Source: Escherichia coli
Lineage (GTDB): Bacteria; Pseudomonadota; Gammaproteobacteria; Enterobacterales; Enterobacteriaceae
Assembly: GCF_036507355.1 (NCBI RefSeq)
Contig: NZ_AP027877.1
DNA: 64,000 nt
Strand: one strand, 5' to 3'
Shown: positions 1 through 41,946 of the stretch, in pieces
How positions within the stretch are numbered: position 1 is the stretch's first letter
Layout: every line of letters begins with the position of its first letter
Position numbers and translations under genes: made by a program
The notes under the pieces: generated by a model
What the model was told of the DNA's origin: nothing
Databases searched by the model: none
What the model saw: the letters and a program-made list of their open reading frames with translations, nothing else

Positions 1-73
1 CTTCTCCTTTAGGATGTTTTCACTCCCCGAAATGGGGATAAAAGGCAAATAAAATAACTAAAGGATTTATTCA

Positions 74-1207
74 ATGAAAAGCAAAGTACTGGCACTTTTA
101 ATTCCTGCCCTGCTCGCCGCAGGTGCTGCACATGCAGCCGAAGTTTATAATAAAGACGGCAACAAATTAGATCTGTATGGCAAAGTTGATGGCCTGCATT
201 ATTTTTCAGATAATTCGGCGAAAGATGGCGACCAGAGCTATGCGCGTCTGGGTTTTAAAGGCGAAACCCAAATTAACGATCAACTTACTGGCTACGGTCA
301 ATGGGAATACAATATTCAGGCAAACAACACTGAATCTTCAAAAAACCAGTCATGGACCCGTCTGGCATTTGCCGGACTGAAATTTGCAGATTACGGTTCT
401 TTCGATTACGGACGTAATTATGGCGTAATGTACGACATCGAAGGCTGGACCGATATGCTGCCTGAATTTGGCGGTGACTCTTATACCAATGCAGACAACT
501 TTATGACTGGTCGAGCCAATGGCGTCGCGACTTATCGTAATACTGATTTCTTCGGTCTGGTAAATGGTCTGAACTTCGCGGTGCAGTATCAAGGTAACAA
601 CGAAGGAGCCAGTAATGGTCAGGAAGGCACCAACAACGGACGTGATGTTCGCCATGAAAACGGTGACGGCTGGGGTCTTTCCACAACATATGATTTAGGC
701 ATGGGCTTTAGCGCTGGTGCGGCATACACCTCTTCTGACCGCACCAATGACCAGGTTAACCATACTGCGGCGGGTGGTGATAAAGCAGACGCGTGGACTG
801 CTGGGCTAAAATACGATGCTAACAATATTTACCTGGCAACCATGTATTCAGAAACGCGTAATATGACCCCGTTTGGCGACAGCGATTATGCTGTTGCAAA
901 CAAAACCCAGAACTTTGAAGTCACTGCACAGTACCAGTTTGATTTTGGTCTGCGTCCGGCAGTCTCTTTCCTGATGTCTAAAGGCCGTGACCTGCACGCT
1001 GCCGGTGGTGCAGACAACCCGGCAGGTGTTGATGATAAAGATCTGGTTAAATACGCCGATGTTGGCGCGACTTACTATTTCAATAAAAACATGTCCACTT
1101 ATGTTGACTATAAAATCAACCTGTTGGATGAAGATGACAGTTTCTACGCTGCCAACGGCATCTCTACCGATGATATTGTCGCTTTAGGTCTGGTTTATCA
1201 GTTCTAA
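74..1207 (+). CDS. ompN: outer membrane porin OmpN
   Basis: 377-aa ORF with signal peptide ([21 protein letters not shown]), porin-type beta-strand pattern and C-terminal LVYQF; matches remembered OmpN. Confidence 0.9.
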
Positions 1208-1215
1208 ATCCTCCT

Positions 1216-1239
1216 GCCCGCTGTTATGGCGGGCTTTTT
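1216..1239 (+). terminator. rho-independent terminator after ompN
   Basis: GC stem gcccgc/gcgggc followed by a T-run directly after the ompN stop. Confidence 0.6.
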
Positions 1240-1266
1240 CTGCTTATTCTTCCTCCTTTGATCTAA

Positions 1267-1782
<516 letters not shown>

Positions 1783-1790
1783 CACTAACG

Positions 1791-1815
1791 CCCGCACATT
1801 GCTGCGGGCTTTTTG
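1791..1815 (+). terminator. rho-independent terminator after uspF
   Basis: stem gcccgca/tgcgggc followed by ttttt. Confidence 0.6.
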
Positions 1816-1957
1816 ATTCATTTCGCAAATGTGCTGACATTTTCCCCTCTAATCCGTACCATACACGCCACAGTTTTTATATCAGATTTCTTATGCTGGG
1901 CGTTCCGGCATGACGCATACTCTTCTGATGCCATATAACGAATTGAGTCGCTTTTAA

Positions 1958-2011
1958 ATGTCGCAAAATCAAGAAATTAGCAAGAAAGAACAATACAACC
2001 TGAACAAGTAA
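1958..2011 (+). pseudogene. ttcC: displaced 5' fragment of ttcA at the prophage end (ttcC-like)
   Basis: 17-codon [20 protein letters not shown] closely resembling the ttcA N-terminus at 13115; contains the 26-bp att core. Confidence 0.7.
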
Positions 2012-2110
2012 GGGCAAAAATCACAACTATCTGACTCATAAGTGTTTTACTTATTTTTCAATGTGTTAAACATCATCAGCGAGAACAATAAACTACGATA
2101 ATCAACTCTT

Positions 2111-2160
2111 TTTTTGCCCCTTTTTTGCCCCTTTTGCAGCGTTTTGCCCCATTTTTGCCA
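2111..2160 (+). repeat. three direct TTTGCCCC repeats next to the tail-side att core (putative integrase arm-type sites)
   Basis: tttgcccc at 2114-2121, 2125-2132 and 2144-2151; same motif twice at 13072-13090 beside the int-side core. Confidence 0.5.
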
Positions 2161-2248
2161 CAAAAAAAAATTCCAAAACGTCTCAATCAAAGTCAAACCA
2201 ACCGCAGCACGTTCTTGCTTAAGACGTGCTGCGGCATAATCCCAATGA

Positions 2249-2833
2249 TTACTCCCTGACAGGGTTCGTAGGCCACTCAATATCAGGTGCAGTTGATGTA
2301 TCAACACGGTTCAGCAACACCCGATACTTTTTCCAGGCTTCCAGCAATGAGGTTTCTTCCTCCGTTGCGATTTCCAGATCCACAGCATCCTGAAGTGGCG
2401 CAATATGCTCACTGGCTACCTGCATCAGGCTGTTTTTTGTTTCTTCCGCCTCTCGGATCCGGAACAGTTTTTCTGCTTCTGCATCTTTCACCCAGGCTGT
2501 GCCGTTCCACTTCTGAAACTCCCCTTCCGGCGATAACCAGGTAACATTTTCCGGTAACGGACCGAGTTCAGAAATAAATAACGCGTCCCCTGACGCTACG
2601 TCATAAACCGTTTTACCCCGATGGTCTTCAACGAGATGCCACGATGCCTCATCACTGTTGAAAACAGCCACGAAGCCTGCCGGAATATCTGGCGGTGCAA
2701 TATCGGTACTGTTTGCTGGCAGACCTGTATGAGGCGGAATATATGCATCACCTTCACCAATAAATTCATTAGTTCCGGCCAGCAGATTATAAATTTTTAT
2801 GGTCCGTGGTTGTTCACTCATTCTGAATGCCAT
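2249..2833 (-). CDS. tfaR: tail fibre assembly protein
   Basis: 194-aa [23 protein letters not shown]... typical lambdoid Tfa, directly downstream of the tail fibre fragment. Confidence 0.85.
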
Positions 2834-3750
2834 TATGCAAGCCTCACAATGTAGTTAAATGCGATGTTTTTGACGGTGTTTTCCGCGTTACCCGCAGCGT
2901 TAACGGTGATGGTGTGTCCATGTGAGCCAATCGAAACAGAGTGCGTATGAGCACCAATTCCGACAGTATGTGCGTGAGCACCTGCAGATGCAGCTGTGCC
3001 GCTGACACTATGAGTGTGCGCTCCTGCAGCACTTGTATTCACACTGGCCGCAGACACAACCTTATGTACTGACCCATTTTGTGACTACTGGCTGACTGCT
3101 GATGCGCCTGTGACACTATGAGTATGGTTTCCGGCACTTGCGGCTGTACCGCTCACACTGTGTGTATGTGCCCCGGTGTTATTCGTAGATTTAGTGCCGT
3201 AATCAAACGACGATGTGGTTTTCGTACCCAAATCCGTACTGGATGCGCTGGCGCTGTGGGTGTGCGATTTAATACCGTCCTGTTCCTGAGACAATACGGC
3301 CCGACCACTGGCAGGTTTGCCCTTAATCGTCCAGCCACGCATATCAGGGATCACGCCTGACGGATAAGCGGCTGCAAGTTTCGGGTAAGCAGATTTGTCA
3401 AAAGTTTGCCCCTGCATCAGGGCATAGCCAGACGGAACGGTATCTGATGGCCACGGGATTGGTGCACCGACTGGATAAAACTCTGCAGGAGGATGAGCTG
3501 AGGTGTAAAGCTGCGCCCACGGCGACCAGTTTGCGTCGGTCGTATCCCGTCGTGAACGAATAAATGCCGGAGCATGAGCACCGCTTGTACCACTCCAGCC
3601 GATGAGTAACTCACCTTCGCCAACGGCTGTCATCCCTTTCAGGTGAATGATATTTCCATACGCTGTTGGATATCCGTTGTTATACACCTCGTATAACTCA
3701 AGACCTGTTGCCCCCTGCGTATTGTCTGTCAGCGCGGTTAGCCGCCATTG
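2833..3750 (-). pseudogene. stfR: side tail fibre C-terminal fragment with in-frame amber stop
   Basis: open frame from the TGA at 3751-3753 through ...[23 protein letters not shown]... with [13 protein letters not shown] repeats; TAG at 3085-3087 splits it; N-terminal bulk of the gene absent. Confidence 0.8.
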
Positions 3751-4217
3751 TCACCAAGAAAATCCCCGCCCTGCGACATAGCGATGGAAAGAGCAGGTAT
3801 TGATTCGTAGTACGCCAGCATTTCAGAAAGGATCGCATCCAGTTTCCTTATCGGAAAATAGGCCTGGTCATAGTTGCGATCCACCCGAAACTGGAACTCG
3901 TGATAATCATCATCGAGCTGAATGAAGTATTTACACCCGACCAGTTTTGCCTGGTCGAAACAGGCATTACGGGCGTAAAAAATTGAGCGGCGGTCACAGA
4001 AATTATCGGCTTCGTCAAAACGACTGGCGATATCGGCTTTGGAAAACACCAGCACCTGTTCACCAAATTCAGCCATGTACTGATGCCGTGTCTTATCTTC
4101 ATCATCAACAACGATAAAAATTTTCCCGGTATAGCCAGCACGACGCAACGTCCGGTAAGTCAGAACTTTGTCCGGTCGCCCGTGAGTCAGAATAAAGGCG
4201 CAAAAATCATCACGCAT
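3738..4217 (-). CDS. GT-A fold glycosyltransferase-like protein, probably C-terminally truncated
   Basis: 159 aa from the ATG overlapping the upstream stop (ATGCGTGA) behind a GGAGGAGGA RBS; motifs FILTHGRPD...IFIVVDDED and [23 protein letters not shown] resemble GT2 signatures including DxD. Confidence 0.5.
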
Positions 4218-5001
4218 ATTCCTCCTCCTCACCACCATGCATGATCTCCACCATGCGCTGCGTCATCCGGACAAATCCATTTTCAATAGCCTGCTGATAA
4301 TCAATGATCACCAGCGCCGACTCCTCGAAAAAACACTGAATTTCAGCGGGGGCGTGAGCGTAATAGTCCGCAATTCTGCTGAAATTAAACACCGTGTGAC
4401 GTTCTGCCGCACACAGGAGGAATTTCTCAATATCAGGCTCAAGGGACGCCGAACGTATCCGGCTGATCAGCTCCTGAGTTTTCGTATCGTCGTACAGTTC
4501 ACTGATATCCGGTTTACCGCCCGACGGCTCATAAACAGGCGTATCAATTTTCGTCGTATACGGCTCCTCCTCATTTCCTGTACCGGGCAAAACATCCGTC
4601 AACAGTTCATCAATTTCTGTCGGGATGAAGCCTGTCAGGGAGACATCAAAATCAGCATTGATTAGGTCCGACAGCTCCATCCGCAACAGATCTTCATCCC
4701 AGCCAGCATTCATCGGCAGGCGATTATCTGCCAGGCGGTACGCCTTTTTCTGCTCATCCGTCAGGCCAGACAGAACAATGACCGGAACAGAATCCATTTT
4801 GAGCATTTCAGCCGCCATAACACGACCGTGACCCGCAATAATTTCGCCCTTTTCGTCAATCAGCACCGGATTAGTCCAGCCGAATTGCTTAATACTTTCT
4901 ACCAGTTGTGCCACCTGCTCAGTACTGTGCGTCCTGGCGTTGTGCGCATACGGTGACAATTCTTGTAATGGGCGATAGACTATCTTTAATTTCTCGCTCA
5001 T
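4210..5001 (-). CDS. ParB/Srx-fold (ParB-like nuclease domain) protein, ynaK-like
   Basis: 263-aa ORF; N-terminal region with GHGR motif (IIAGHGRVMAAEML) typical of the ParB/sulfiredoxin fold; acidic C-terminus. Confidence 0.6.
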   Translation of the reverse strand: MSEKLKIVYRPLQELSPYAHNARTHSTEQVAQLVESIKQFGWTNPVLIDEKGEIIAGHGRVMAAEMLKMDSVPVIVLSGLTDEQKKAYRLADNRLPMNAGWDEDLLRMELSDLINADFDVSLTGFIPTEIDELLTDVLPGTGNEEEPYTTKIDTPVYEPSGGKPDISELYDDTKTQELISRIRSASLEPDIEKFLLCAAERHTVFNFSRIADYYAHAPAEIQCFFEESALVIIDYQQAIENGFVRMTQRMVEIMHGGEEEEYA

Positions 5002-5138
5002 ACAGCCTTGCTTTATGAATAAAACGCACCCCAGCAGCCAGTGCTACTGGGGACGGAGGTGTTGCTGGTAAAGTTAGGTATTGGATCAATGAGTGAGTCA
5101 ACATAATATTAAACTCACAATTATAAATCAGCCATATA

Positions 5139-6614
5139 TTAGGAGCGCCAAAAAAAACCTGAAAACAATATAATAACAGGATAAATTTCAAGGCGACCAA
5201 GAATCATAGCTATGCACATTAAACATTTTGCAATGTCATTAAGCACTCCGAATGACGATGCAGTAGCCCCAAAACCTAATCCCATATTATTAATACATGC
5301 AGCCACTGTTGCAAATGATGTAAGAAAATCATATCCCATACCATTTAACACCAGTATAAAAAACACCGTGAAGAGAGTATAAAGAAAAAAGAAACTCCAT
5401 ACAGACCTCATTACACGATCTGTAACTATCTTCCCTCCTACATTTACACTCAACAACGCTCTGGGATGAGAAAGCTGATTTATCTCGTGTTTGCTTTGTT
5501 TGAAAAGTATAAGAAATCGAAGTGACTTAATTCCACCACAAGTTGAACCTATACATCCCCCAAAGAAACTTGACAACAGCAAAAACACTATCGTGTGCGT
5601 GGGCCAACTTGCATAATCCTGCGTAGCTAAACCATTATCAGTGAGCATGGAGCTGGCAAGAAAAAACGAATGAATAAAACTTCCATGCAAGTCATACATA
5701 CCTATATGCCAGACCTGGAAAGAGGTAACAATGATCACCCCTAAGGCTATTAACAGAAAGAAACGAAGTTCAATATCTCTGATTAAAGGTTTTATCGTTT
5801 TCCTGCTAATAACAATATACCAAAGAGTGAAGTTGAAAGCCGATAGCAGGGAAAAAGAACCAGCCACCAGCTCAACCAAATAGTTATTAAAATATCCGAT
5901 ACTCTCGCTATGAGTTGAGAAACCACCAAGCGAAACTGTGGAAATCCCGTGACAAATAGCATCAAACAAAGGCATTCCTGCAAGTCTATAACAGACAATA
6001 CAAGCAATACCTAATAAAGAATAAGTTATCCACAGTGTCCGTGACGTATCGGCCAGGCGGGGAGTGAGTTTGTCATCCTTAAATGGCCCCGGCATTTCTG
6101 ACTGATAAAGCTTTGCACCACCAATACCCAATAATGGCAATACAGCAACCGCCAGAACAATAACTCCTAAACCACCTATAAAATTTAACTGTGACCGATA
6201 GTACAAATATGCCCGAGGTAATGAACTAACATCATCAATTACAGTTGCTCCTGTTGTTGTTATTCCAGAAACCCCTTCAAACAGAGCATCAATGAACGTT
6301 AAATTAAGTTCTGAGTCAATCCATAAAGGGAATGCACTAATAACAGAAAACAAAATCCAAAACATTACAATTATAATAAACCCATCACGGGTACGTAATT
6401 GAATGCCAGATTTCTTAGTTGTATACCACGCTCCGCCACCAATGCAAAAAAATATAACGAAAGTTATAAAGAAAACGAACAGGCTTTTTTCTTTATAAAA
6501 CAATGCTACAACCATTGGTGGCAACATTGAAAGACTATAGAGCCAAACCAGGAACCCACACATATGAGTAACAACTCTTACATGAGATGTATTCATATCT
6601 AAATATTCTTTCAA
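5139..6614 (-). CDS. trkG: Trk potassium uptake protein TrkG (prophage moron)
   Basis: polytopic membrane protein with TrkH/TrkG-type repeats; AT-rich relative to flanks; likely true start at 6596 (MNTSHVRVV...). Confidence 0.9.
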   Translation of the reverse strand: MKEYLDMNTSHVRVVTHMCGFLVWLYSLSMLPPMVVALFYKEKSLFVFFITFVIFFCIGGGAWYTTKKSGIQLRTRDGFIIIVMFWILFSVISAFPLWIDSELNLTFIDALFEGVSGITTTGATVIDDVSSLPRAYLYYRSQLNFIGGLGVIVLAVAVLPLLGIGGAKLYQSEMPGPFKDDKLTPRLADTSRTLWITYSLLGIACIVCYRLAGMPLFDAICHGISTVSLGGFSTHSESIGYFNNYLVELVAGSFSLLSAFNFTLWYIVISRKTIKPLIRDIELRFFLLIALGVIIVTSFQVWHIGMYDLHGSFIHSFFLASSMLTDNGLATQDYASWPTHTIVFLLLSSFFGGCIGSTCGGIKSLRFLILFKQSKHEINQLSHPRALLSVNVGGKIVTDRVMRSVWSFFFLYTLFTVFFILVLNGMGYDFLTSFATVAACINNMGLGFGATASSFGVLNDIAKCLMCIAMILGRLEIYPVIILFSGFFWRS

Positions 6615-6731
6615 TTATAACCACCTTGCTGCAATATTATGATTATACTGTATAAAATTTAACTCCTCTTAGATCTTACTTCACTGTTCCTTATGAAACA
6701 ATCATCAAAATGAATCATATTGTAGTTAAGA

Positions 6732-6862
6732 TTTTACTTTAAACACTGCTCGGTTATGTATTGCTGAGCACCTTCAAGTTGGGCCTGCATCATTACCAGT
6801 CGTTCCCGGAGGGTGAAATAATCCCGTTCAGCGGTGTCTGCCAGTCGGGGGGAGGCTGCATT
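6732..6862 (-). pseudogene. rzpR: Rz-like endopeptidase C-terminal fragment
   Basis: frame reading ...LADTAERDYFTLRERLVMMQAQLEGAQQYITEQCLK-stop, matching the Rz C-terminus; cut off by IS3 at 6863. Confidence 0.6.
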
Positions 6863-6892
6863 TGATCCTACCCACGTAATATGGACACAGGC

Positions 6893-7759
6893 CTAAGCGA
6901 GGTTCTGGTTTTCAAATTGTTCCGGACTGAGGCCGCCACACCAACTGTGCCGCCGCCACCGATTGTAATCACATTCGATATAATTAAACACCGTTGCCCG
7001 CATTATTTCCCGGCTGATAAAGTGTTCTCCATGGATACATTCCACTTTCAGCGAATGAAAGAAGCTTTCCACGCAGGCATTATCGTAGCAGCAACCTTTT
7101 GCGCTCATACTTCCACGCAGATTATGCCGCTTCAGTTGCGCCTGATAATCTGCTGAACAGTACTGGCCTCCACGGTCCGTGTGAACGATAACGTTCCGGG
7201 GCCTCTTACGCCGCCACAGCGCCATCTGCAGGGCATCGCAGGCCAGTTGCGCCGTCATGCGTGGCGACATTGACCAGCCAATAACGGCACGTGACCACAG
7301 GTCAATGACCACTGCCAGATACAGCCAGCCTTCATCTGTACGTAAGTACGTGATGTCTCCTGCCCACTTCTGGTTCGGGCCACTGGCGTAAAAATCCTGC
7401 TCCAACAGATTTTCTGACACAGGCAGGCCGTGTGCGCGGTAGCTGACCGGGCTGAACTTCCGGGAGGCCTTTGCCCTCAGTCCCTGACGGCGCAGGCTTG
7501 CCGCCACGGTTTTTACGTTAAAGGGGTAACCCTGAGCACGCAGTTCATCCGTCAGGCGTGGGGCACCGTAACGCTGTTTTGACCGGGTAAAAGCCGCGAG
7601 GACAACGCTGTCGCAGTGTTGGCGGAACTGCTGACGCGTGCTTATCCTTGTCCGCCGCTGACACCACGTATACCAGCCGCTGCGGGCCACCCGGAGCACG
7701 CGGCACATTGCTTTGATGCTGAACTCAGCCTGATGTTTTTCAATAAAGACATACTTCAT
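6893..7759 (-). CDS. insF: IS3 transposase OrfB (DDE integrase domain)
   Basis: 288-aa [35 protein letters not shown]... with DDE-type catalytic region. Confidence 0.9.
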
Positions 7760-8064
7760 TTCAGGCGCTTCGCGAAGTATGTCGCGGCCTTTTGGAGGAT
7801 AGCCAGCTCTTCATCCCGTTCTGCCAGCTGGCGTTTGAGACGTGCAATCTCGGTAGACATCTCCAGTTCACGTTCAGAAGACGTCTGCTGATTTTGCTGT
7901 TTACTGCGCCAGTTGTAGAGCTGTGATTCATACAGGCTGAGTTCACGGGCTGCGGCAGTAACACCGATGCGTTCAGCAAGCTTCAGGGCTTCACTGCGAA
8001 ATTCAGGCGAATGCTGTTTACGGGGTTTTTTACTGGTTGATACTGTTTTTGTCATGTGAGTCAC
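7756..8064 (-). CDS. insE: IS3 transposase OrfA
   Basis: 102-aa HTH protein [34 protein letters not shown]... Confidence 0.9.
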
Positions 8065-8120
8065 CTCTGACTGAGAGTTTACTCACTTAGCCGCGTGTCC
8101 ACTATTGCTGGGTAAGATCA

Positions 8121-9500
8121 CCGGACGCAACTGAACATCATCAGGACACGCAGCCGCTGGATGCTCAGTCACAGGTAAATTCTGTTGATGCGAAATATCA
8201 GGAACTGCGGGCAGAACTCCATGAAGCCCGGAAAAACATTCCATCAAAAAATCCTGTCGATGCCGATAAATTGCTTGCTGCATCACGTGGTGAATTTGTT
8301 GACGGAATTAGCGACCCGAACGATCCGAAATGGGTAAAGGGGATCCAGACTCGCGATTGTGTGTACCAGAACCAGCCAGAAACGGAAAAAACCAGCCCAG
8401 ATATGAATCAACCTGAGCCAGTAGTGCAACAGGAACCGGAAATAGCCTGCAATGCCTGCGGCCAGACTGGCGGGGATAACTGCCCTGACTGTGGTGCGGT
8501 GATGGGCGACGCAACATACCAGGAAACATTCGATGAAGAGAGTCAGGTTGAAGCTAAGGAAAATGATCCGGAGGAAATGGAAGGCGCTGAACATCCGCAC
8601 AATGAGAATGCTGGCAGCGATCCGCATCGCGATTGCAGTGATGAAACTGGCGAAGTCGCAGATCCCGTAATCGTAGAAGACATAGAGCCAGGTATTTATT
8701 ACGGAATTTCGAATGAGAATTACCACGCGGGTCCCGGTATCAGTAAGTCTCAGCTCGATGACATTGCTGATACTCCGGCACTATATTTGTGGCGTAAAAA
8801 TGCCCCCGTGGACACCACAAAGACAAAAACGCTCGATTTAGGAACTGCTTTCCACTGCCGGGTACTTGAACCGGAAGAATTCAGTAACCGCTTTATCGTA
8901 GCACCTGAATTTAACCGCCGTACAAACGCCGGAAAAGAAGAAGAGAAAGCGTTTCTGATGGAATGCGCAAGCACAGGAAAAACGGTTATCACTGCGGAAG
9001 AAGGCCGGAAAATTGAACTCATGTATCAAAGCGTTATGGCTTTGCCGCTGGGGCAATGGCTTGTTGAAAGCGCCGGACACGCTGAATCATCAATTTACTG
9101 GGAAGATCCTGAAACAGGAATTTTGTGTCGGTGCCGTCCGGACAAAATTATCCCTGAATTTCACTGGATCATGGACGTGAAAACTACGGCGGATATTCAA
9201 CGATTCAAAACCGCTTATTACGACTACCGCTATCACGTTCAGGATGCATTCTACAGTGACGGTTATGAAGCACAGTTTGGAGTGCAGCCAACTTTCGTTT
9301 TTCTGGTTGCCAGCACAACTATTGAATGCGGACGTTATCCGGTTGAAATTTTCATGATGGGCGAAGAAGCAAAACTGGCAGGTCAACAGGAATATCACCG
9401 CAATCTGCGAACCCTGTCTGACTGCCTGAATACCGATGAATGGCCAGCTATTAAGACATTATCACTGCCCCGCTGGGCTAAGGAATATGCAAATGACTAA
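8121..9500 (+). pseudogene. recE: exonuclease VIII (RecE) C-terminal fragment, N-terminally truncated at the IS3 junction
   Basis: frame open from the IS3 boundary; ends ...[13 protein letters not shown] and overlaps the recT start as in Rac; about 460 of ~866 codons remain. Confidence 0.8.
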
Positions 9501-10302
9501 GCAACCACCAATCGCAAAAGCCGATCTGCAAAAAACTCAGGGAAACCGTGCACCAGCAGCAGTTAAAAATAGCGACGTGATTAGTTTTATTAACCAGCCA
9601 TCAATGAAAGAGCAACTGGCAGCAGCTCTTCCACGCCATATGACGGCTGAACGTATGATCCGTATCGCCACCACAGAAATTCGTAAAGTTCCGGCGTTAG
9701 GAAACTGTGACACTATGAGTTTTGTCAGTGCGATCGTACAGTGTTCACAGCTCGGACTTGAGCCAGGTAGCGCCCTCGGTCATGCATATTTACTGCCTTT
9801 TGGTAATAAAAACGAAAAGAGCGGTAAAAAGAACGTTCAGCTAATCATTGGCTATCGCGGCATGATTGATCTGGCTCGCCGTTCTGGTCAAATCGCCAGC
9901 CTGTCAGCCCGTGTTGTCCGTGAAGGTGACGAGTTTAGCTTCGAATTTGGCCTTGATGAAAAGTTAATACACCGCCCGGGAGAAAACGAAGATGCCCCGG
10001 TTACCCACGTCTATGCTGTCGCAAGACTGAAAGACGGAGGTACTCAGTTTGAAGTTATGACGCGCAAACAGATTGAGCTGGTGCGCAGCCTGAGTAAAGC
10101 TGGTAATAACGGGCCGTGGGTAACTCACTGGGAAGAAATGGCAAAGAAAACGGCTATTCGTCGCCTGTTCAAATATCTGCCCGTATCAATTGAGATCCAG
10201 CGTGCAGTATCAATGGATGAAAAGGAACCACTGACAATCGATCCTGCAGATTCCTCTGTATTAACCGGGGAATACAGTGTAATCGATAATTCAGAGGAAT
10301 AA
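9493..10302 (+). CDS. recT: recombinase RecT (single-strand annealing protein)
   Basis: 269 aa starting [24 protein letters not shown]... Confidence 0.9.
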
Positions 10303-10431
10303 TTCAGCCTGGCGGTGTAATGCACCGCCAACTTGAAATATTTTTTATGAGAAAAATTATGAGATATGACAATGTTGGTGATGCTGCCAACTTACTGATT
10401 TAGTGTATGATGGTGTTTTTGAGGTGCTCCA

Positions 10432-10707
10432 GTGGCTTCTGTTTCTATCAGCTGTCCCTCCTGTTCAGCTACTGACGGGGTGGTGCGTAACGGCAAAAGC
10501 ACCGCCGGACATCAGCGCTATCTCTGCTCTCACTGCCGTAAAACATGGCAACTGCAGTTCACTTACACCGCTTCTCAACCCGGTACGCACCAGAAAATCA
10601 TTGATATGGCCATGAATGGCGTTGGATGCCGGGCAACAGCCCGCATTATGGGCATTGGCCTCAACACGATTTTACGTCACTTAAAAAACTCAGGCCGCAG
10701 TCGGTAA
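10432..10707 (+). CDS. insA: IS1 InsA
   Basis: 91-aa [23 protein letters not shown]... zinc-finger/HTH protein; A6C frameshift motif near 10683. Confidence 0.9.
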
Positions 10708-11129
10708 CCTCGCGCATACAGCCGGGCAGTGACGTCATCGTCTGCGCGGAAATGGACGAACAGTGGGGCTATGTCGGGGCTAAATCGCGCCAGCGCTGGC
10801 TGTTTTACGCGTATGACAGGCTCCGGAAGACGGTTGTTGCGCACGTATTCGGTGAACGCACGATGGCGACGCTGGGGCGTCTTATGAGCCTGCTGTCACC
10901 CTTTGACGTGGTGATATGGATGACGGATGGCTGGCCGCTGTATGAATCCCGCCTGAAGGGAAAGCTGCACGTAATCAGCAAGCGATATACGCAGCGAATT
11001 GAGCGGCATAACCTGAATCTGAGGCAGCACCTGGCACGGCTGGGACGGAAGTCGCTGTCGTTCTCAAAATCGGTGGAGCTGCATGACAAAGTCATCGGGC
11101 ATTATCTGAACATAAAACACTATCAATAA
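10626..11129 (+). CDS. insB: IS1 InsB (expressed as the InsAB' frameshift fusion)
   Basis: 167-aa ORF overlapping insA in the -1 frame. Confidence 0.85.
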
Positions 11130-11322
11130 GTTGGAGTCATTACCGACAATGTTAAACCATGTCCATTTTGTGGTTGTCCATCAGTAACGGTGAAAGCCAT
11201 TTCAGGATATTACCGAGCGAAGTGTAACGGATGCGAATCCCGAACCGGTTATGGTGGAAGTGAAAAAGAAGCACTCGAAAGATGGAATAAACGAACCACT
11301 GGAAATAATAATGGAGGTGTTC

Positions 11323-11532
11323 ATGTATAAAATTACCGCCACTATTGAAAAGGAAGGTGGCACTCCTACTAACTGGACAAGATATTCAAAATCTAAACTA
11401 ACGAAATCAGAATGCGAAAAAATGCTCTCAGGTAAAAAAGAAGCAGGCGTTTCCAGAGAGCAGAAAGTAAAACTGATAAATTTTAATTGCGAGAAACTTC
11501 AGTCCTCGAGAATTGCATTGTATTCAAATTAA
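11323..11532 (+). CDS. ydaC: Rac prophage small protein YdaC
   Basis: 69 aa MYKITATIEKEGGTPTNWTRYSKSKL...; conserved position between ralR and xis. Confidence 0.7.
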   Translation: MYKITATIEKEGGTPTNWTRYSKSKLTKSECEKMLSGKKEAGVSREQKVKLINFNCEKLQSSRIALYSN

Positions 11533-11610
11533 AACTTCATAGCTGATTATTAATAATCAACATCGGGCGTCAATTTCAGTCTAACATTGGCGCCTGCCAG
11601 AGGTGATGCG

Positions 11611-11826
11611 ATGGCACAAGTAATCTTTAATGAAGAGTGGATGGTTGAATACGGCCTGATGCTTCGCACTGGTCTGGGGGCCAGACAAATTGAAGCATAC
11701 CGCCAGAACTGTTGGGTGGAGGGCTTCCACTTCAAACGAGTATCTCCTTTAGGTAAGCCAGACAGCAAACGAGGGATTATCTGGTACAACTATCCAAAGA
11801 TAAATCAGTTTATCAAAGACTCATGA
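11611..11826 (+). CDS. xisR: prophage excisionase
   Basis: small protein [33 protein letters not shown]... immediately upstream of the integrase. Confidence 0.7.
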
Positions 11827-11827
11827 T

Positions 11828-13063
11828 ATGTCTAAATTACCAACAGGTGTCGAGATTAGAGGTAGATACATTCGCATCTGGTTCATGTTTCGAGGAAAAC
11901 GATGTCGGGAAACATTAAAAGGCTGGGAGATTACAAACAGTAATATTAAAAAGGCCGGAAATTTAAGAGCGCTGATAGTTCATGAAATAAACTCCGGTGA
12001 ATTTGAGTATTTAAGACGTTTTCCCCAGTCCAGCACTGGGGCAAAAATGGTGACAACGAGAGTCATAAAAACGTTCGGAGAGCTTTGTGATATCTGGACA
12101 AAAATTAAAGAGACAGAGTTAACAACAAACACAATGAAGAAAACGAAATCACAATTAAAAACACTCAGAATAATAATTTGTGAAAGTACCCCGATATCAC
12201 ATATTCGTTATAGCGATATCTTAAACTACCGGAATGAACTGCTGCATGGAGAAACGCTTTACCTGGATAATCCAAGATCCAACAAAAAAGGAAGAACCGT
12301 GCGCACAGTTGATAACTATATCGCCCTGCTCTGTTCGCTGTTGCGTTTTGCGTATCAGTCGGGATTTATATCAACCAAACCATTTGAAGGAGTAAAAAAA
12401 TTACAGCGAAACAGAATAAAGCCTGATCCGTTATCTAAAACAGAATTCAATGCATTAATGGAAAGTGAAAAAGGACAGAGCCAGAACTTGTGGAAATTTG
12501 CCGTTTACTCAGGACTTCGTCACGGGGAACTGGCAGCTCTGGCGTGGGAGGATGTGGATCTCGAAAAGGGAATAGTGAATGTCAGAAGAAACCTGACGAT
12601 ACTTGATATGTTCGGTCCCCCAAAAACAAATGCCGGGATCCGAACAGTAACACTACTGCAGCCTGCTCTTGAAGCACTGAAGGAGCAATACAAACTGACC
12701 GGGCATCATCGCAAAAGCGAAATCACCTTTTATCATCGGGAGTACGGCAGAACCGAAAAGCAAAAACTGCATTTTGTTTTCATGCCCAGGGTGTGTAACG
12801 GAAAACAAAAACCTTATTACTCGGTAAGCAGTTTGGGGGCAAGGTGGAATGCAGCAGTAAAACGTGCTGGTATTCGCCGCCGTAATCCGTACCATACGCG
12901 GCATACTTTTGCCTGCTGGCTGTTGACGGCAGGAGCGAACCCGGCATTTATAGCCAGCCAAATGGGGCATGAAACTGCGCAGATGGTGTATGAAATTTAC
13001 GGTATGTGGATTGATGACATGAACGACGAACAGATAGCCATGTTGAATGCGCGGTTATCGTAG
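11828..13063 (+). CDS. intR: tyrosine-type prophage integrase
   Basis: 411 aa, lambda Int-like, C-terminal RHTFA...Y catalytic region; next to the att core. Confidence 0.9.
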   Translation: MSKLPTGVEIRGRYIRIWFMFRGKRCRETLKGWEITNSNIKKAGNLRALIVHEINSGEFEYLRRFPQSSTGAKMVTTRVIKTFGELCDIWTKIKETELTTNTMKKTKSQLKTLRIIICESTPISHIRYSDILNYRNELLHGETLYLDNPRSNKKGRTVRTVDNYIALLCSLLRFAYQSGFISTKPFEGVKKLQRNRIKPDPLSKTEFNALMESEKGQSQNLWKFAVYSGLRHGELAALAWEDVDLEKGIVNVRRNLTILDMFGPPKTNAGIRTVTLLQPALEALKEQYKLTGHHRKSEITFYHREYGRTEKQKLHFVFMPRVCNGKQKPYYSVSSLGARWNAAVKRAGIRRRNPYHTRHTFACWLLTAGANPAFIASQMGHETAQMVYEIYGMWIDDMNDEQIAMLNARLS

Positions 13064-13071
13064 TTGCAAAG

Positions 13072-13090
13072 TTTGCCCCCAATTTGCCCC
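13072..13090 (+). repeat. two direct TTTGCCCC repeats between the int stop and the att core (putative arm-type sites)
   Basis: gtttgcccccaatttgcccca; same motif as at 2111-2160. Confidence 0.5.
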
Positions 13091-13114
13091 ATTTAGTACC
13101 AGGGAACTGAAATA

Positions 13115-14050
13115 ATGCAAGAAAATCAACAAATTACAAAGAAAGAACAATACAACCTGAACAAATTACAAAAACGCCTGCGTCGTAACGTGGGCGAAGC
13201 CATTGCTGACTTCAATATGATTGAAGAAGGCGATCGCATCATGGTTTGCCTCTCCGGGGGTAAAGACAGCTATACCATGCTGGAGATTCTGCGCAATTTG
13301 CAGCAAAGCGCGCCAATCAATTTTTCGCTGGTGGCTGTTAACCTCGATCAAAAGCAACCGGGCTTCCCGGAACACGTTCTGCCCGAGTATCTTGAAAAGC
13401 TGGGCGTTGAGTACAAGATTGTTGAAGAGAACACTTACGGTATCGTGAAAGAGAAGATTCCAGAGGGCAAAACCACTTGCTCACTGTGTTCTCGGCTACG
13501 TCGCGGTATCCTTTATCGCACCGCAACGGAACTGGGGGCGACGAAGATCGCGCTGGGTCACCATCGTGACGATATCCTGCAAACGCTGTTCTTAAATATG
13601 TTCTACGGCGGCAAGATGAAAGGTATGCCTCCGAAATTGATGAGCGATGATGGCAAACATATCGTGATTCGTCCGCTGGCCTACTGCCGCGAGAAAGATA
13701 TTCAGCGCTTTGCCGATGCAAAAGCGTTCCCGATTATTCCGTGCAACCTGTGCGGTTCACAGCCTAACCTGCAACGTCAGGTGATTGCTGACATGTTGCG
13801 TGACTGGGATAAACGTTATCCGGGGCGTATCGAGACGATGTTCAGCGCGATGCAGAATGTGGTGCCATCGCATCTGTGCGATACCAACCTGTTCGATTTT
13901 AAAGGCATTACCCACGGTTCTGAAGTGGTTAACGGGGGTGATCTGGCGTTTGATCGCGAAGAGATCCCACTACAACCGGCGGGCTGGCAGCCAGAAGAAG
14001 ATGAAAATCAGTTGGATGAGTTACGGCTGAATGTGGTTGAAGTGAAATAA
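13115..14050 (+). CDS. ttcA: tRNA 2-thiocytidine biosynthesis protein TtcA
   Basis: 311 aa with SGGKDS PP-loop and CxxC motifs; 5' end contains the att core. Confidence 0.9.
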
Positions 14051-15812: not shown

Positions 15813-15934
15813 AAAAAAAAGCCGACTCATCAAAGTCGGCGTCGTACGAATCAATTGTGCTATGCAGTAATTCAAAAAAGGAAGTAAGACAATATGGAGC
15901 GCAACGCCCATCGCTTGACGTTGCATTCACCTGC
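15813..15934 (-). ncRNA. fnrS: FNR-activated small RNA FnrS
   Basis: reverse complement reads gcaggtgaatgcaacgtcaagcgatgggcgttgcgctccatattgtc... ending in a gccgacttt/aaagtcggc hairpin plus U-run. Confidence 0.8.
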
Positions 15935-22799: not shown

Positions 22800-22893
22800 A
22801 CCGGTCACCAGGACCCCAGGCCGGATTTAAGACGAGGATGCACTGCTGTGTGTACTGTAGAGTCTGGCGGATGTCGACAGGCTCTATTTTTTT
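22800..22893 (+). ncRNA. mcaS: McaS-like small RNA
   Basis: accggtcaccaggaccccaggccggatttaagacgaggatgcactgctgtgtgtactgtagagtctggcggatgtcgacaggctctattttttt resembles remembered McaS; strand assignment tentative. Confidence 0.55.
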
Positions 22894-23272
22894 ATTCATT
22901 TTTTAGCTCTGTAAATAACCACATTCTCGCCGGGATTGGGGAATGAGTGACGAGATCAGTGGTGTCTGGCGGCTATCACGCCACAGAATCAAATAACAGA
23001 TAGCCTACGGTAAAATTTCGCTGACTGGAATTATCCCACCCTCGATCCATGTGATGGCTTGCCCTCATTTCTTCAGGCAGAAAAATCAAAAAATCGCTTT
23101 ATGCTATCAAACTGCGACAAACCAGACGCGAAACTGGGTACTTACTATTCGTTAGTCTTGCCCTATCCACTTATCTTTTTGGTGGTATGGCTGCTGATGT
23201 TGCTGGCGTGGTATCTTGTCGGTCTGCCGATAGGTCCGGGTATTTACCCACGTTTGTCTTAAGAGAGAACGG

Positions 23273-26387: not shown

Positions 26388-27419
26388 ATGATCGCTGAAC
26401 TGTTTACAAATAATGCGCTTAATCTGGTCATTATTTTCGGTAGCTGCGCAGCATTGATTCTGATGAGCTTTTGGTTTCGCCGCGGAAATCGTAAAAGAAA
26501 AGGTTTTTTATTCCATGCGGTGCAATTTTTAATCTACACCATAATTATCAGTGCTGTTGGTAGCATTATTAATTATGTTATAGAAAACTATAAACTCAAA
26601 TTTATCACCCCAGGCGTTATCGATTTTATCTGTACGTCCCTGATTGCGGTTATTCTGACGATTAAGCTATTTTTGCTGATTAATCAGTTTGAAAAACAGC
26701 AGATTAAAAAAGGTCGCGATATCACCAGTGCGCGGATTATGTCGCGCATTATCAAAATCACCATTATTGTGGTGCTTGTTCTGCTTTATGGCGAACATTT
26801 TGGCATGAGCCTTTCTGGCTTGCTGACCTTTGGTGGTATTGGTGGTCTGGCTGTCGGTATGGCCGGTAAAGATATTCTGAGTAATTTCTTTTCCGGGATC
26901 ATGCTCTATTTCGACCGTCCTTTCAGTATTGGCGACTGGATCCGTTCACCGGACAGAAATATCGAAGGTACAGTAGCGGAAATTGGCTGGCGAATTACCA
27001 AAATTACGACCTTTGATAATCGTCCATTGTACGTACCGAACTCGCTGTTTTCGTCGATCAGCGTAGAAAACCCAGGACGAATGACCAACCGCCGCATTAC
27101 CACGACCATTGGTTTACGTTATGAGGATGCGGCAAAAGTGGGCGTTATTGTCGAAGCCGTACGTGAGATGCTGAAAAATCACCCGGCCATCGACCAGCGA
27201 CAAACCTTACTGGTTTATTTCAACCAGTTTGCTGACTCGTCATTGAATATTATGGTTTATTGCTTTACCAAAACCACGGTATGGGCTGAGTGGCTTGCTG
27301 CACAGCAAGACGTTTATTTGAAGATTATCGATATTGTACAGTCACACGGCGCGGACTTTGCCTTCCCCAGCCAGACGCTGTATATGGATAACATTACACC
27401 GCCGGAACAGGGTCGCTAA
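26388..27419 (+). CDS. ynaI: MscS-family mechanosensitive channel YnaI
   Basis: 343 aa, N-terminal TM helices plus MscS beta domain. Confidence 0.85.
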
Positions 27420-27430
27420 ATCAGACATCA

Positions 27431-27458
27431 CTGGCGTTATCCACAAGGGTAACGCCAG
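27431..27458. terminator. hairpin between convergent ynaI and mppA
   Basis: ctggcgtta/taacgccag stem; weak T-tract. Confidence 0.4.
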
Positions 27459-27469
27459 TTCCCATCACA

Positions 27470-29083
27470 TCAATGCTTCACAATATACATAGTCCGACTG
27501 TACGCCACATCTTCAGGGTTATTAATGGGATAACCTTTCAGCCACGGTTTGATTAATCGTCCATTGGTATATTGATAAATTGGTGCAATCGGTGCTTGCT
27601 CCATGAGGATTTTTTCTGCCGCGTTGTAATCGGCATTACGCGCTTTAACGGTATTTTCCGTCGATGCCTGGGCCAGAACTTTGTCGTATGCCGGATTGTT
27701 AAAGCGTGAAATATTTCCTGAATGCGTTGACGTTAATAATGTCAGGAAAGTGGAGGGTTCATTATAATCCCCCACCCATGAGGCGCGGATAACATCAAAA
27801 TTGCCGGTGTTACGGCTATCGATATAGGTTTTCCATTCCTGATTTTGCAATTTAACATCTACGCCAAGGTTCTTTTTCCACATCGATGCTACAGCAATCG
27901 CAATTTTTTGATGGTTTTCTGAAGTGTTATACAAAAGCGTCAGCTTCAGCGGTTTTTGCGGACCATAACCAGCTGCGCTCAACAAAGTTTTTGCCTGCGC
28001 ATTCAGTTCTTCCTGACTCATTTGTTCAAACGGCGAAGGTTCCGGCGTAAATCCGGCGGTAACATCTGGTGTAAAATGCCACGCTGGCTTTTCGCCCGTC
28101 CCTAATACTTTTTCGGTCATCAGGCGGCGATCTATCGTCATACTTAATGCCAGACGAACGCGCTGATCTGCCGTCGGCCCTTTTTGCGTGTTAAACGCAT
28201 AATAATAGGTCCCGAGCTGCGGCGGCGTATAAACCTGCCCCGGAATATCCTTCAACAGCTTCTGATACATATTTTTCGGGAAGGATTCGGTGATATCAAT
28301 ATCCCCCGCGAGGTAACGCTTAGTGGCTGCGGATTCCTGATTAATTGGCAGGAAGGTCACTTTTTGCAGTACCGTTTTGGCGTTATCCCAATAATGGGTA
28401 TTCGGTACCACGACCAGTTTTTCATTGACTACGCGCTCTTTAAGAACATAAGCGCCATTGCCGATCAGATTTCCGGGTTTCGTCCACTCTTTACCGCTTT
28501 CTACGTTGGCTTTTTGCACCGGGAAGAAGGCAAAGTTAGCGGTTAAATTCACAAACCACGGCAACGGTTTATCAAGCTGAATTTTCAAAGTATGGGCATC
28601 AACTGCGGTGACGCCAAGCTGGTCAGGCGTAGCTTTACCATCAATAATCGCCTGTGCGTTGTTGATTCCCGCCAGCGCGGCAAACCATGCAAATGGCGAT
28701 AGCGTTTTCGGGTCCACCAGACGCTGCCAGCTGTAGACAAAATCTTGCGCCGTTACCGGTGTGCCATCCGCCCATTTTGCGTTATCGCGCAGGGTAAAAG
28801 TCCAGATACGGTTGTCATTACTTTTCCACTGAGTCGCAACGCCGGGGACAATCTCCCCTTTCTCGTTCTGATTCACCAGTCCTTCAAACAGATCGCGAAT
28901 GACCTGAATCTCTGGCAGGCCCACGGCTTTAGCGGGATCCAGCGACGCAGGCTCATCTTTAATGTGGCGCACCAGCTCCTGCTTCTCTGCCAGTACTGTG
29001 CCGCTCGGAACTTCTGCAGCATACGAAAGAGAAATGCTGCTGACCAACAGCGCACAACACGTGACTGAAACAGAGTGCTTCAT
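27470..29083 (-). CDS. mppA: periplasmic murein tripeptide-binding protein MppA
   Basis: 537 aa with signal peptide; OppA-like family 5 substrate-binding protein; tracked ORF extends to 29104. Confidence 0.9.
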   Translation of the reverse strand: MKHSVSVTCCALLVSSISLSYAAEVPSGTVLAEKQELVRHIKDEPASLDPAKAVGLPEIQVIRDLFEGLVNQNEKGEIVPGVATQWKSNDNRIWTFTLRDNAKWADGTPVTAQDFVYSWQRLVDPKTLSPFAWFAALAGINNAQAIIDGKATPDQLGVTAVDAHTLKIQLDKPLPWFVNLTANFAFFPVQKANVESGKEWTKPGNLIGNGAYVLKERVVNEKLVVVPNTHYWDNAKTVLQKVTFLPINQESAATKRYLAGDIDITESFPKNMYQKLLKDIPGQVYTPPQLGTYYYAFNTQKGPTADQRVRLALSMTIDRRLMTEKVLGTGEKPAWHFTPDVTAGFTPEPSPFEQMSQEELNAQAKTLLSAAGYGPQKPLKLTLLYNTSENHQKIAIAVASMWKKNLGVDVKLQNQEWKTYIDSRNTGNFDVIRASWVGDYNEPSTFLTLLTSTHSGNISRFNNPAYDKVLAQASTENTVKARNADYNAAEKILMEQAPIAPIYQYTNGRLIKPWLKGYPINNPEDVAYSRTMYIVKH

Positions 29084-29419: not shown

Positions 29420-30319
29420 CTAAACAGCACCTTTATACTTCAGCCTATCTATAAATAATGAGAATGCCGAGCCAGCATGTCGACGGTGTGGATAGTACAG
29501 GTGATAACCGGGTAAATCTGGTGTGAATTTATCCAAAACACGTATCAGTTTTTTTTCTTTAATAGCCCGCTCAACCTGATCATAAGGTAGATACGCCAAT
29601 CCATGCCCATCAATTGCAGCATCAATGATCAGGTCTATCGTATTCAGTAAAAGCTGACCTTCCATGCGAACACGAACTTCACGTCCACCGCGTATTAATC
29701 TCCAGCGATTTGCTGTACCCGATGTGGGAAGATACAAATTAACTGCCTGATGATCTATTAATTGTGACACTGACGTTGGAACACTTCGGCGGGAAAAATA
29801 ATCCGGTGAGCCGACAATAGCCATTGGTATATCTGGCCCGATTCGAATGGCGATCATATCTTTATCCATCTCCCCACCCAGACGGACGCCTGCATCAAAA
29901 CGCTCAGAAACGACATCAGTCAAACCATAATCAATGATAAGCTGAATATCAATTTCAGGGTGTGATTTCAGGAATGTGCGCATGGCTGGTAACAATATCG
30001 TTTTTGCTGCATGTTCTACAGTAGTAATACGTATTGTCCCGGATGGGCGGTTCTGCAGATCGCTCAGGGATGCCAGGGCAGAATCTATGTCATGCAGCAT
30101 AGGGCCAAGAACAGACAAAAGATGCTCGCCCGCTTCAGTGGGTACAACACTGCGCGTGGTTCGCGTCAGAAGCCGCAATCCCAATCGTTCTTCTATACGG
30201 CGCACTATCTGGCTTAAAGCTGACTGCGCCATGCTCAGGCGGGCTGCTGCTCGAGTGAAGCTACGCTCCTCTGCAACGACGACAAACGCCATCAGATCAG
30301 CGATCTCTTCACGCTTCAT
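29420..30319 (-). CDS. pgrR: LysR-family regulator PgrR (YcjZ)
   Basis: 299 aa with N-terminal LysR HTH (FVVVAEERSFTRAAARLSMAQSALSQ). Confidence 0.75.
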   Translation of the reverse strand: MKREEIADLMAFVVVAEERSFTRAAARLSMAQSALSQIVRRIEERLGLRLLTRTTRSVVPTEAGEHLLSVLGPMLHDIDSALASLSDLQNRPSGTIRITTVEHAAKTILLPAMRTFLKSHPEIDIQLIIDYGLTDVVSERFDAGVRLGGEMDKDMIAIRIGPDIPMAIVGSPDYFSRRSVPTSVSQLIDHQAVNLYLPTSGTANRWRLIRGGREVRVRMEGQLLLNTIDLIIDAAIDGHGLAYLPYDQVERAIKEKKLIRVLDKFTPDLPGYHLYYPHRRHAGSAFSLFIDRLKYKGAV

Positions 30320-30481
30320 TCAGTATCTCCATACAATCTATTAATCATTTAAATGATAGGTCTAATCATGATTTTGGGTCTAATCAACTTAATGATCAAT
30401 ATCTATAGTGATATCACCAACCGTTGAATCGCCACGGGTTTAACAGACACCTCAGAGTCATTTAAGATGGCTTAAAGAGAG

Positions 30482-30766
30482 GTGCCCATGAGCGGTAAGC
30501 GTTATCCCGAAGAGTTTAAAATTGAAGCAGTCAAACAGGTTGTTGATCGCGGTTATTCTGTTGCCAGCGTTGCAACACGTCTCGATATCACCACCCACAG
30601 CCTTTACGCCTGGATAAAGAAGTACGGTCCGGATTCTTCCGCTAATAAAGAACAGTCAGATGCTCAGGCCGAGATCCGCCGTCTCCAGAAAGAGCTGAAG
30701 CGGGTTACCGACGAACGGGACATATTAAAAAAAGCCGCGGCGTACTTCGCAAAGCTGTCCGACTGA
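30482..30766 (+). CDS. IS3-family transposase OrfA (HTH)
   Basis: 94 aa MPMSGKRYPEEFKIEAVKQVVDRGYSVASVATRL... with leucine-zipper-like C-terminus. Confidence 0.85.
   Translation: MPMSGKRYPEEFKIEAVKQVVDRGYSVASVATRLDITTHSLYAWIKKYGPDSSANKEQSDAQAEIRRLQKELKRVTDERDILKKAAAYFAKLSD
30727..30734 (+). promoter_or_regulatory. putative -1 programmed ribosomal frameshift site (A-run followed by G)
   Basis: ttaaaaaaagcc near the end of orfA, typical position of the IS3-family orfAB slippery site. Confidence 0.5.
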
Positions 30767-30822
30767 GGTACGCCTTTATCCGTGACAACACCTGTTGCTG
30801 GCCTGTTCGCCTGCTCTGTCGG

Positions 30823-31635
30823 GTGCTGGATGTTCATCCCAGTGGTTTTTACGCCTGGCTTCAGCAGCCGCATTCACAACGCCATCAGGCAGACCTGAGG
30901 CTGACAGGGCAGATTAAACAGTTCTGGCTGGAATCGGGATGCGTCTATGGTTATCGCAAAATCCATCTGGATCTGCGGGACAGCGGGCAACAGTGCGGAG
31001 TGAACAGAGTCTGGCGACTGATGAAACGTGTCGGGATAAAGGCTCAGGTCGGATACCGGAGCCCGCGGGCACGTAAAGGCGAGGCCAGTATCGTGTCGCC
31101 CAACAGGCTCCAGCGACAGTTCAATCCGGATGCTCCGGATAAGCGTTGGGTAACGGACATAACCTACATCAGGACCCACGAAGGCTGGCTGTATCTTGCC
31201 GTGGTTGTTGATCTGTTCTCACGCAAAATTATCGGCTGGTCCATGCAATCCCGGATGACAAAGGACATTGTCCTGAACGCACTGCTGATGGCTGTATGGC
31301 GCCGTAATCCCCAAAAACAGGTGCTGGTTCATTCGGATCAGGGCAGTCAGTACACAAGCCATGAGTGGCAGTCGTTCCTGAAATCACACGGCCTGGATGG
31401 CAGCATGAGCCGTCGCGGTAACTGCCATGATAATGCGGTTGCAGAAAGCTTTTTCCAGTTGTTGAAACGCGAACGGATAAAGAAAAAGATCTACGGAACG
31501 CGGGAAGAAGCCCGCAGCGATATTTTTGATTACATCGAAATGTTTTATAACAGTAAGCGTCGGCATGGTTCCAGCGATCAGATGTCACCGACAGAATATG
31601 AAAACCAGTATTATCAACGGCTCGGAAGTGTCTAG
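30823..31635 (+). CDS. IS3-family transposase OrfB (DDE integrase)
   Basis: 270 aa with DDE residues in WVTDITY...HSDQGSQYTS...CHDNAVAESFF context. Confidence 0.85.
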   Translation: MLDVHPSGFYAWLQQPHSQRHQADLRLTGQIKQFWLESGCVYGYRKIHLDLRDSGQQCGVNRVWRLMKRVGIKAQVGYRSPRARKGEASIVSPNRLQRQFNPDAPDKRWVTDITYIRTHEGWLYLAVVVDLFSRKIIGWSMQSRMTKDIVLNALLMAVWRRNPQKQVLVHSDQGSQYTSHEWQSFLKSHGLDGSMSRRGNCHDNAVAESFFQLLKRERIKKKIYGTREEARSDIFDYIEMFYNSKRRHGSSDQMSPTEYENQYYQRLGSV

Positions 31636-38791: not shown

Positions 38792-39790
38792 ATGTCCCCT
38801 ACTATTTATGATATTGCCAGGGTTGCAGGCGTATCAAAATCCACCGTATCACGCGTGCTGAATAAGCAAACTAATATCTCCCCGGAAGCGCGCGAAAAAG
38901 TGTTACGGGCCATTGAAGAATTACAGTATCAACCAAACAAGCTGGCCCGCGCGCTGACCTCTTCGGGTTTTGATGCCATTATGGTGATTTCTACCCGTTC
39001 GACCAAAACTACGGCGGGTAATCCGTTTTTCTCAGAAGTTCTACATGCCATCACCGCCAAAGCGGAAGAAGAAGGTTTCGACGTGATATTACAAACGTCG
39101 CACAACCTGGCAGAAGACTTACAAAAATGTGAAAGCAAAATTAAGCAGAAAATGATTAAAGGCATTATTATGCTAAGTTCGCCAGCGGATGAGTCATTTT
39201 TTGCCCAACTTGATAAATACGATATTCCTGTCGTGGTGATTGGCAAAGTTGAAGGTCAATATGCCCATGTTTATTCTGTCGATACCGATAATTTTGGTGA
39301 CAGCATTGCGCTAACCGATGCATTAATTGAGAATGGACATAAAAACATTGCCTGCCTTCATGCACCGCTTGATGTCCATGTTTCAGTGGATCGGGTAAAT
39401 GGTTATAAGCAAAGTCTGTCCGCGCATAATATTGCAGTGCGTGATGAATGGATTGTTGACGGCGGTTATACCCATGAAACAGCACTGCAAGCCGCGAGAG
39501 AATTATTAAGCCAGTCACCGTTGCCTGAGGCGGTGTTTGCCACTGACAGCCTGAAATTAATGAGCATTTATCGTGCGGCAGCAGAGAAAAATATTGCTAT
39601 TCCGCAGCAGTTAGCGGTGGTGGGTTATAGCAATGAAACGCTGTCATTTATTTTAACGCCTGCACCAGGCGGCATCGATGTTCCGACGCAGGAGTTAGGG
39701 CAACAAAGCTGCGAGTTATTATTCCGCTTAATTTCCGGAAAACCGTCGCCACAAAATATTACCGTTGCCACGCATATGACGCTGAAATAA
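38792..39790 (+). CDS. ycjW: LacI-family transcriptional regulator YcjW
   Basis: 332 aa, N-terminal [24 protein letters not shown]. Confidence 0.85.
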
Positions 39791-39814
39791 ATACCAGCTA
39801 CCTTGCCTGAATGC

Positions 39815-39890
39815 CGGATGCGATGCTAGCGCATCTTATCCGGCCTACATTTATAGATCGGATAAAGTACTCGCGCCGCATCCGGCAATT
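39815..39890. repeat. REP elements
   Basis: gccggatgcgatgctagcgcatcttatccggcctac and cgcgccgcatccggcaat palindromic units. Confidence 0.7.
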
Positions 39891-39900
39891 TAGCCCATTA

Positions 39901-40806: not shown

Positions 40807-40850
40807 TATTGTTCCTTGTATTATCCTGGGGGAATGCCTTCCCCCTGTAT

Positions 40851-41933: not shown

Positions 41934-41946
41934 GTTGATTCCTTTG

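Follow-up and report, generated by a model that had tools for sequence, protein, structure and literature searches.

The question raised by this locus is why a tail fibre reading frame that continues on both sides should be broken by a single amber codon. The window, by which we mean the whole 64,000-nucleotide stretch of Escherichia coli DNA analysed here, carries on its minus strand a TAG at 3085-3087, inside sequence related to the side tail fibre gene stf of the Rac prophage. Such a codon could be the natural end of a gene, a mutation, a functional readthrough signal or a sequencing error. The reading that we prefer, with a probability of roughly 0.92, is a spontaneous nonsense mutation from TGG to TAG at Trp925 in a Rac-type stf pseudogene.

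The plus strand at 3085-3087 reads CTA, which gives TAG on the minus strand. When the segment 2833-3900 was translated on the minus strand, all the tail fibre codons were found in one frame, 217 of them before the TAG and 83 after it. The part upstream of the amber (3088-3738, minus strand, codons 708-924 of the intact gene) covers the segment homologous to the collar domain and the first of the HxH repeats; in the part downstream (2836-3084, minus strand, codons 926-1008) the HxH needle returns and the conserved C-terminus follows. The natural stop codon of stf is located at 2833-2835 (minus strand), where it overlaps the ATG of tfaR. The initial annotation had described an in-frame TAG at 3085-3087 in a tail fibre remnant, with the fibre frame continuing beyond it, and the direct translation agrees with this description. 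The word remnant is also appropriate, as stf codons 1-707 are missing. In the program-made list of open reading frames (ORFs), the remnant is split into a 200-aa ORF at 3085-3687, starting with the GTG at 3687, and a 74-aa ORF at 2833-3057, also starting with GTG, both on the minus strand and in the same frame.

To compare the locus with intact genes, the region was searched by megablast against a reference collection of 5426 complete E. coli genomes. Sequence resembling stf is present in 3910 of the 5426, at up to 6 places per genome. The best match, with 99.7% DNA identity, is strain NCTC9064, in which the aligned sequence is the 3' end of an uninterrupted gene annotated as a 1008-aa 'phage tail protein'. 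The neighbours of this gene, tfaR, uspF and ompN, are the same as those in the window, and so the two copies occupy the orthologous uspF-ompN/Rac site. Strain A34 provides another intact 1008-aa copy at a different chromosomal site. Aligning the three DNA sequences gives CAG TGG TCA in NCTC9064 and A34 versus CAG TAG TCA in the window, and Trp925 is read in both intact proteins. The codon therefore differs by one base, G to A on the coding strand, or C to T at base 3086 of the plus strand, and the alignment is gap-free; neither an indel nor a rearrangement affects the site. Over the whole 908-nt remnant only two bases differ from NCTC9064: the one at 3086, which is the nonsense change, and another at 3073, which is synonymous (Gly, GGT/GGG). 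The 83 codons after the TAG accordingly encode protein identical to that of NCTC9064, showing that homology to the same protein persists in frame. Since all 908 nt align without gaps to an intact stf with two differing bases, the stretch containing the TAG is not a chance open frame. The difference does not extend into the next gene, because tfaR (2249-2833, minus strand), encoding the tail fibre assembly protein, is intact and specifies the same 194-aa protein as in NCTC9064. Within its coding sequence, we also observed a full-length Rfam match to IS009 (RF02111, 225.8 bits) at 2292-2490 on the minus strand.

The tryptophan is found beyond these two strains. In the protein alignment it is present in the Stf proteins of Escherichia phage PhiR29_2 and of lambda (SSGWSQY) and in Salmonella phage SW5 (GGAWTQ), and it lies in a variable stretch flanked on either side by a block of HxH repeats. 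The remnant protein is 99.3% identical to PhiR29_2 Stf, and its last 214 residues are 68.6% identical to lambda Stf. With the tryptophan restored, the C-terminal 300 residues match 692 phage records. These comparisons decide against a natural boundary at the TAG, with a fibre gene ending there and a small tip gene following downstream. The GTG-started 74-aa ORF at 2833-3057 could stand for such a tip gene, but a single annotated CDS crosses the amber position in NCTC9064, A34, PhiR29_2 and lambda, and all the intact homologues examined are read through as a single 1008-aa protein that has Trp here. In the structure of T4 gp37, too, one continuous chain passes through the corresponding region. 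We therefore give a natural boundary almost no credence. The alignment with intact stf genes that the initial annotation had proposed as a check thus bears out its claim of a single-base nonsense change rather than a natural stop: the homologues read through with TGG, and there is no gene boundary at the position.

We next consider how much of stf is left around the amber codon. The remnant extends over 2833-3740 on the minus strand and is made up of codons 708-1008 and the stop codon, preceded by 2 nt of codon 707, without the start codon, the N-terminal domain and the upstream late operon. Block comparison and inspection of the junction show that, compared with the Rac prophage of NCTC9064, 23,241 bp are deleted at 3740/3741. 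The missing sequence in NCTC9064 contains the rest of a gene with a TET-associated glycosyltransferase (TAGT) domain, the genes for terminase, portal, capsid, tail tube and tape measure, J, lom, and stf codons 1-707. At the junction, stf codon 707 abuts, out of frame, sequence from the middle of the TAGT-domain gene. The 5' part of that gene remains at 3741-4238 (minus strand), truncated by the deletion; its frame extends 3 nt into stf DNA, where it meets a stop at 3738-3740. Its TAGT domain matches PF20691 with E = 9e-24, and it lies directly downstream of an ORF at 4210-5001 (minus strand) whose RefSeq annotation in other strains is ParB/Srx N-terminal-domain protein (ynaK). Together, the two genes might be what is left, in the Rac late region, of a phage module for DNA modification.

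The remnant can be set against a lambdoid Stf of the Rac StfR type, to which it is most similar. The likeness consists of the same collar domain, HxH repeats and C-terminal end, and of an intact tfa gene overlapping the stf stop. The difference is that the window keeps codons 708-1008 only, having lost the start codon, the PF08400 domain and the Ala/Ser-rich shaft, and has a stop in place of Trp925. In the intact homologue PF08400 matches residues 1-134, and the Pfam families Collar and Phage_fiber also match. A functional Stf would be expected to have PF08400 with a start codon, an uninterrupted reading frame, and, ahead of tfa, a C-terminal collar, HxH repeats and the conserved C-terminus. 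The first is lost with codons 1-707 and the second is broken by the TAG at 3085-3087, while the C-terminal series and the following tfa are all in place, though interrupted by the stop.

We then asked how widespread the TAG allele is. A 61-mer centred on the TAG matches 735 complete E. coli records, none of them exactly; the best matches are all at 98.4%, i.e. with one mismatch. With the G restored, the same 61-mer is found at 100% in 350 complete E. coli records. Counted by place, none of the 781 corresponding places in complete E. coli genomes has TAG. A 31-mer with the TAG has no exact match in IMG/VR and none in the JGI metagenome contigs, and the control 31-mer with TGG is found in 21 IMG/VR viral contigs. 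At the protein level, the exact product of the 200-aa ORF corresponds to GenBank BED22553.1, 'hypothetical protein VEE46_23210 [Escherichia coli]', which is recorded on 1 contig. Looking up the exact products of its ATG-started 182-aa version, of the 74-aa ORF and of the 166-aa TAGT fragment returned no record. From the 90% cluster of the 200-aa product, the 6 other members that were read (of 124) all end elsewhere, none of them at ...SAVSQ, and most are labelled 'partial' by their source. With zero TAG matches against many with TGG, and with the product on a single contig, the TAG allele is, as judged from these searches, derived and private to one assembly.

An allele seen in one assembly only, and absent from every collection searched, may raise the suspicion that the A at 3086 arose by mistake in sequencing or assembly, for instance by mis-polishing in a repetitive, multi-copy fibre region, and that the true genome has TGG. 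The internal HTHSVSG repeats and the frequent presence of several stf paralogues in one E. coli genome (up to 6 places) would make the region prone to this. However, mis-polishing imports the base of a paralogue, yet the TAG occurs in 0 of the 781 places from which it could have come. The flanks are also clean and gap-free, with an ordinary level of strain divergence (22 substitutions in 3.7 kb), and a nonsense change is what neutral decay predicts in a gene truncated by a deletion. We account an error unlikely on these grounds. As for the cause of a true mutation, a Dcm hotspot (CCWGG) was considered and rejected: the plus-strand context GACCACTGG is not a Dcm site.

Whether the stop has an effect depends on whether the remnant is translated. 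The stf frame has stops just upstream of the remnant. In a scan of 2000-5200 for promoter and terminator consensus sequences, fewer promoter-like sites were found than in shuffled sequence, and none is placed to drive the remnant; this outcome carries no weight for or against expression. Because there is neither a start codon in the stf frame nor an in-frame fusion to an upstream gene, the fragment is most likely untranslated and under no selection. A counter-point to the lack of expression is that the 200-aa ORF with its GTG start does exist.

It may also be supposed that the amber is functional, with a suppressor tRNA or programmed readthrough controlling the production of a fibre fragment. 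Nothing positive speaks for this; the frame is merely open for 83 codons past the stop, and this is explained by there having been only one substitution in that part since divergence from the intact relative. The tRNA scan of the 64-kb window finds no tRNA gene, and the stop is conserved in no homologue from the complete E. coli genomes, IMG/VR or the JGI metagenomes. The fragment also has no start codon, no PF08400 attachment domain and no virion module to serve, and as the 5' end of stf is absent, suppression would matter little, so that the search for a suppressor allele suggested with the initial annotation would add little. A functional amber is thus considered extremely improbable.

The position of the amber in the folded protein can be judged from T4 gp37, as the last 215 residues match its receptor-binding tip (PDB 2XGF) with E = 1e-88. 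The collar, the HxH iron-binding needle repeats and the C-terminus are common to gp37 and Stf, and the amber falls in the variable segment between the outgoing and the returning HxH repeats, corresponding to the distal tip. Within the tip segment, individual residues cannot be aligned. In an ungapped HMMER alignment Trp925 comes 6 residues later than gp37 W936, so the two tryptophans are not demonstrably equivalent. In the gp37 needle histidines of the three chains coordinate seven iron atoms, residues 1010-1026 at the very C-terminus run back to the D10 collar domain, and amber mutations along the needle serve as conditional-lethal markers (PMC6957217). By homology, a stop at Trp925 would remove the returning HxH needle strand as well as the C-terminus that packs into the collar domain, and we infer that the amber would be inactivating even in a full-length stf.

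The condition of the remaining prophage was evaluated by comparing window positions 1-14000 collinearly with the Rac prophage of NCTC9064 (locus L003). Five collinear blocks were obtained: window 12-3744 corresponds to L003 1-3733, 3741-5078 to 26971-28308, 5074-6862 to 29504-31292, 8120-10376 to 39101-41357, and 11145-14000 to 41349-44204. The first block, 12-3744, is gap-free over its 3.7 kb. Its 22 substitutions are distributed unevenly, with 12 of them in ompN (74-1207, plus strand), which is far more diverged than the adjoining prophage end (2 in about 1.5 kb).

Two other lesions involve insertion sequences. An IS3 copy (orfA and orfB, about 6863-8119, minus strand) lies between trkG and a 5'-truncated recE. 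At this site about 7.8 kb of the NCTC9064 sequence is missing, comprising part of rzpD, the other lysis genes, the DUF1133/1364/1367 block, sieB, kilR and two-thirds of recE from its 5' end. An IS1 copy (10377-11144) interrupts the toxin gene ralR after codon 6, flanked by the 9-bp target duplication GACAATGTT at 10368-10376 and 11145-11153. The antitoxin sRNA RalA (Rfam RF02694, 11329-11507, minus strand) is intact. Two further sRNAs, FnrS (15817-15934, minus strand) and McaS (22800-22895, plus strand), were found at the gathering threshold in ordinary chromosomal context.

Rac of E. coli K-12 occupies the same integration site, between ttcA and uspF-ompN, and has in common with the window the genes intR, xisR, rcbA, ralR/RalA, recT, recE, trkG, ynaK, stf and tfaR. 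The K-12 prophage is defective, with genes that are truncated or interrupted by IS elements. Four lesions of the window are absent from the Rac prophage of NCTC9064: the 23.2-kb deletion, the IS3-linked deletion that reaches into recE, the IS1 in ralR and the amber codon. The Rac prophage of the window cannot make virions.

Taken together, we account for the amber codon by one transition on the coding strand, from G to A, which turned the Trp925 codon into a stop. The 23,241-bp deletion left a 301-codon 3' fragment of stf and removed the head and tail module together with the start of the gene, and the IS3-associated deletion and the IS1 insertion damaged the remainder of the prophage. The amber would then be neutral decay in a fragment that is most likely untranslated and under no selection. 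Because stf is independently dead from the deletion, the amber is a second lesion, in a sense that implies no temporal order, and is probably neutral. From a computation over the fragment, about 3.4% of all single-base changes create a stop; with selection relaxed, a single nonsense change is therefore nothing unusual. It is in this way that we infer the neutrality, the lack of expression and the loss of function of the fragment. The junction at 3740/3741 is spanned by no match in the 5426 complete E. coli genomes; none of these genomes has either the junction or the TAG allele.

A different suggestion is that the remnant and the intact tfaR are not inert. The 200-aa collar fragment might be expressed as a free protein, or the fragment might serve as a fibre-tip recombination donor for superinfecting lambdoid phages. 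There is no supporting observation, and we regard the suggestion as very doubtful. If the fragment were a recombination donor, the amber would poison or gate the exchanges, depending on the suppressor status of the host.

With the nonsense mutation in an already truncated gene as the preferred reading, the locus is likely a case of ordinary pseudogene decay, a known kind of event with no likely consequence. It is a textbook example of a cryptic prophage that, besides deletions and IS insertions, has acquired a nonsense point mutation, and its biological weight is very small. The practical use lies in annotation: neither BED22553.1 (200 aa) nor the 74-aa ORF downstream of it should be annotated as a gene, since each is a piece of the same stf pseudogene. 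Being private to this strain among the 5426 complete E. coli genomes, the TAG allele and the 23.2-kb deletion junction could be used as lineage markers.
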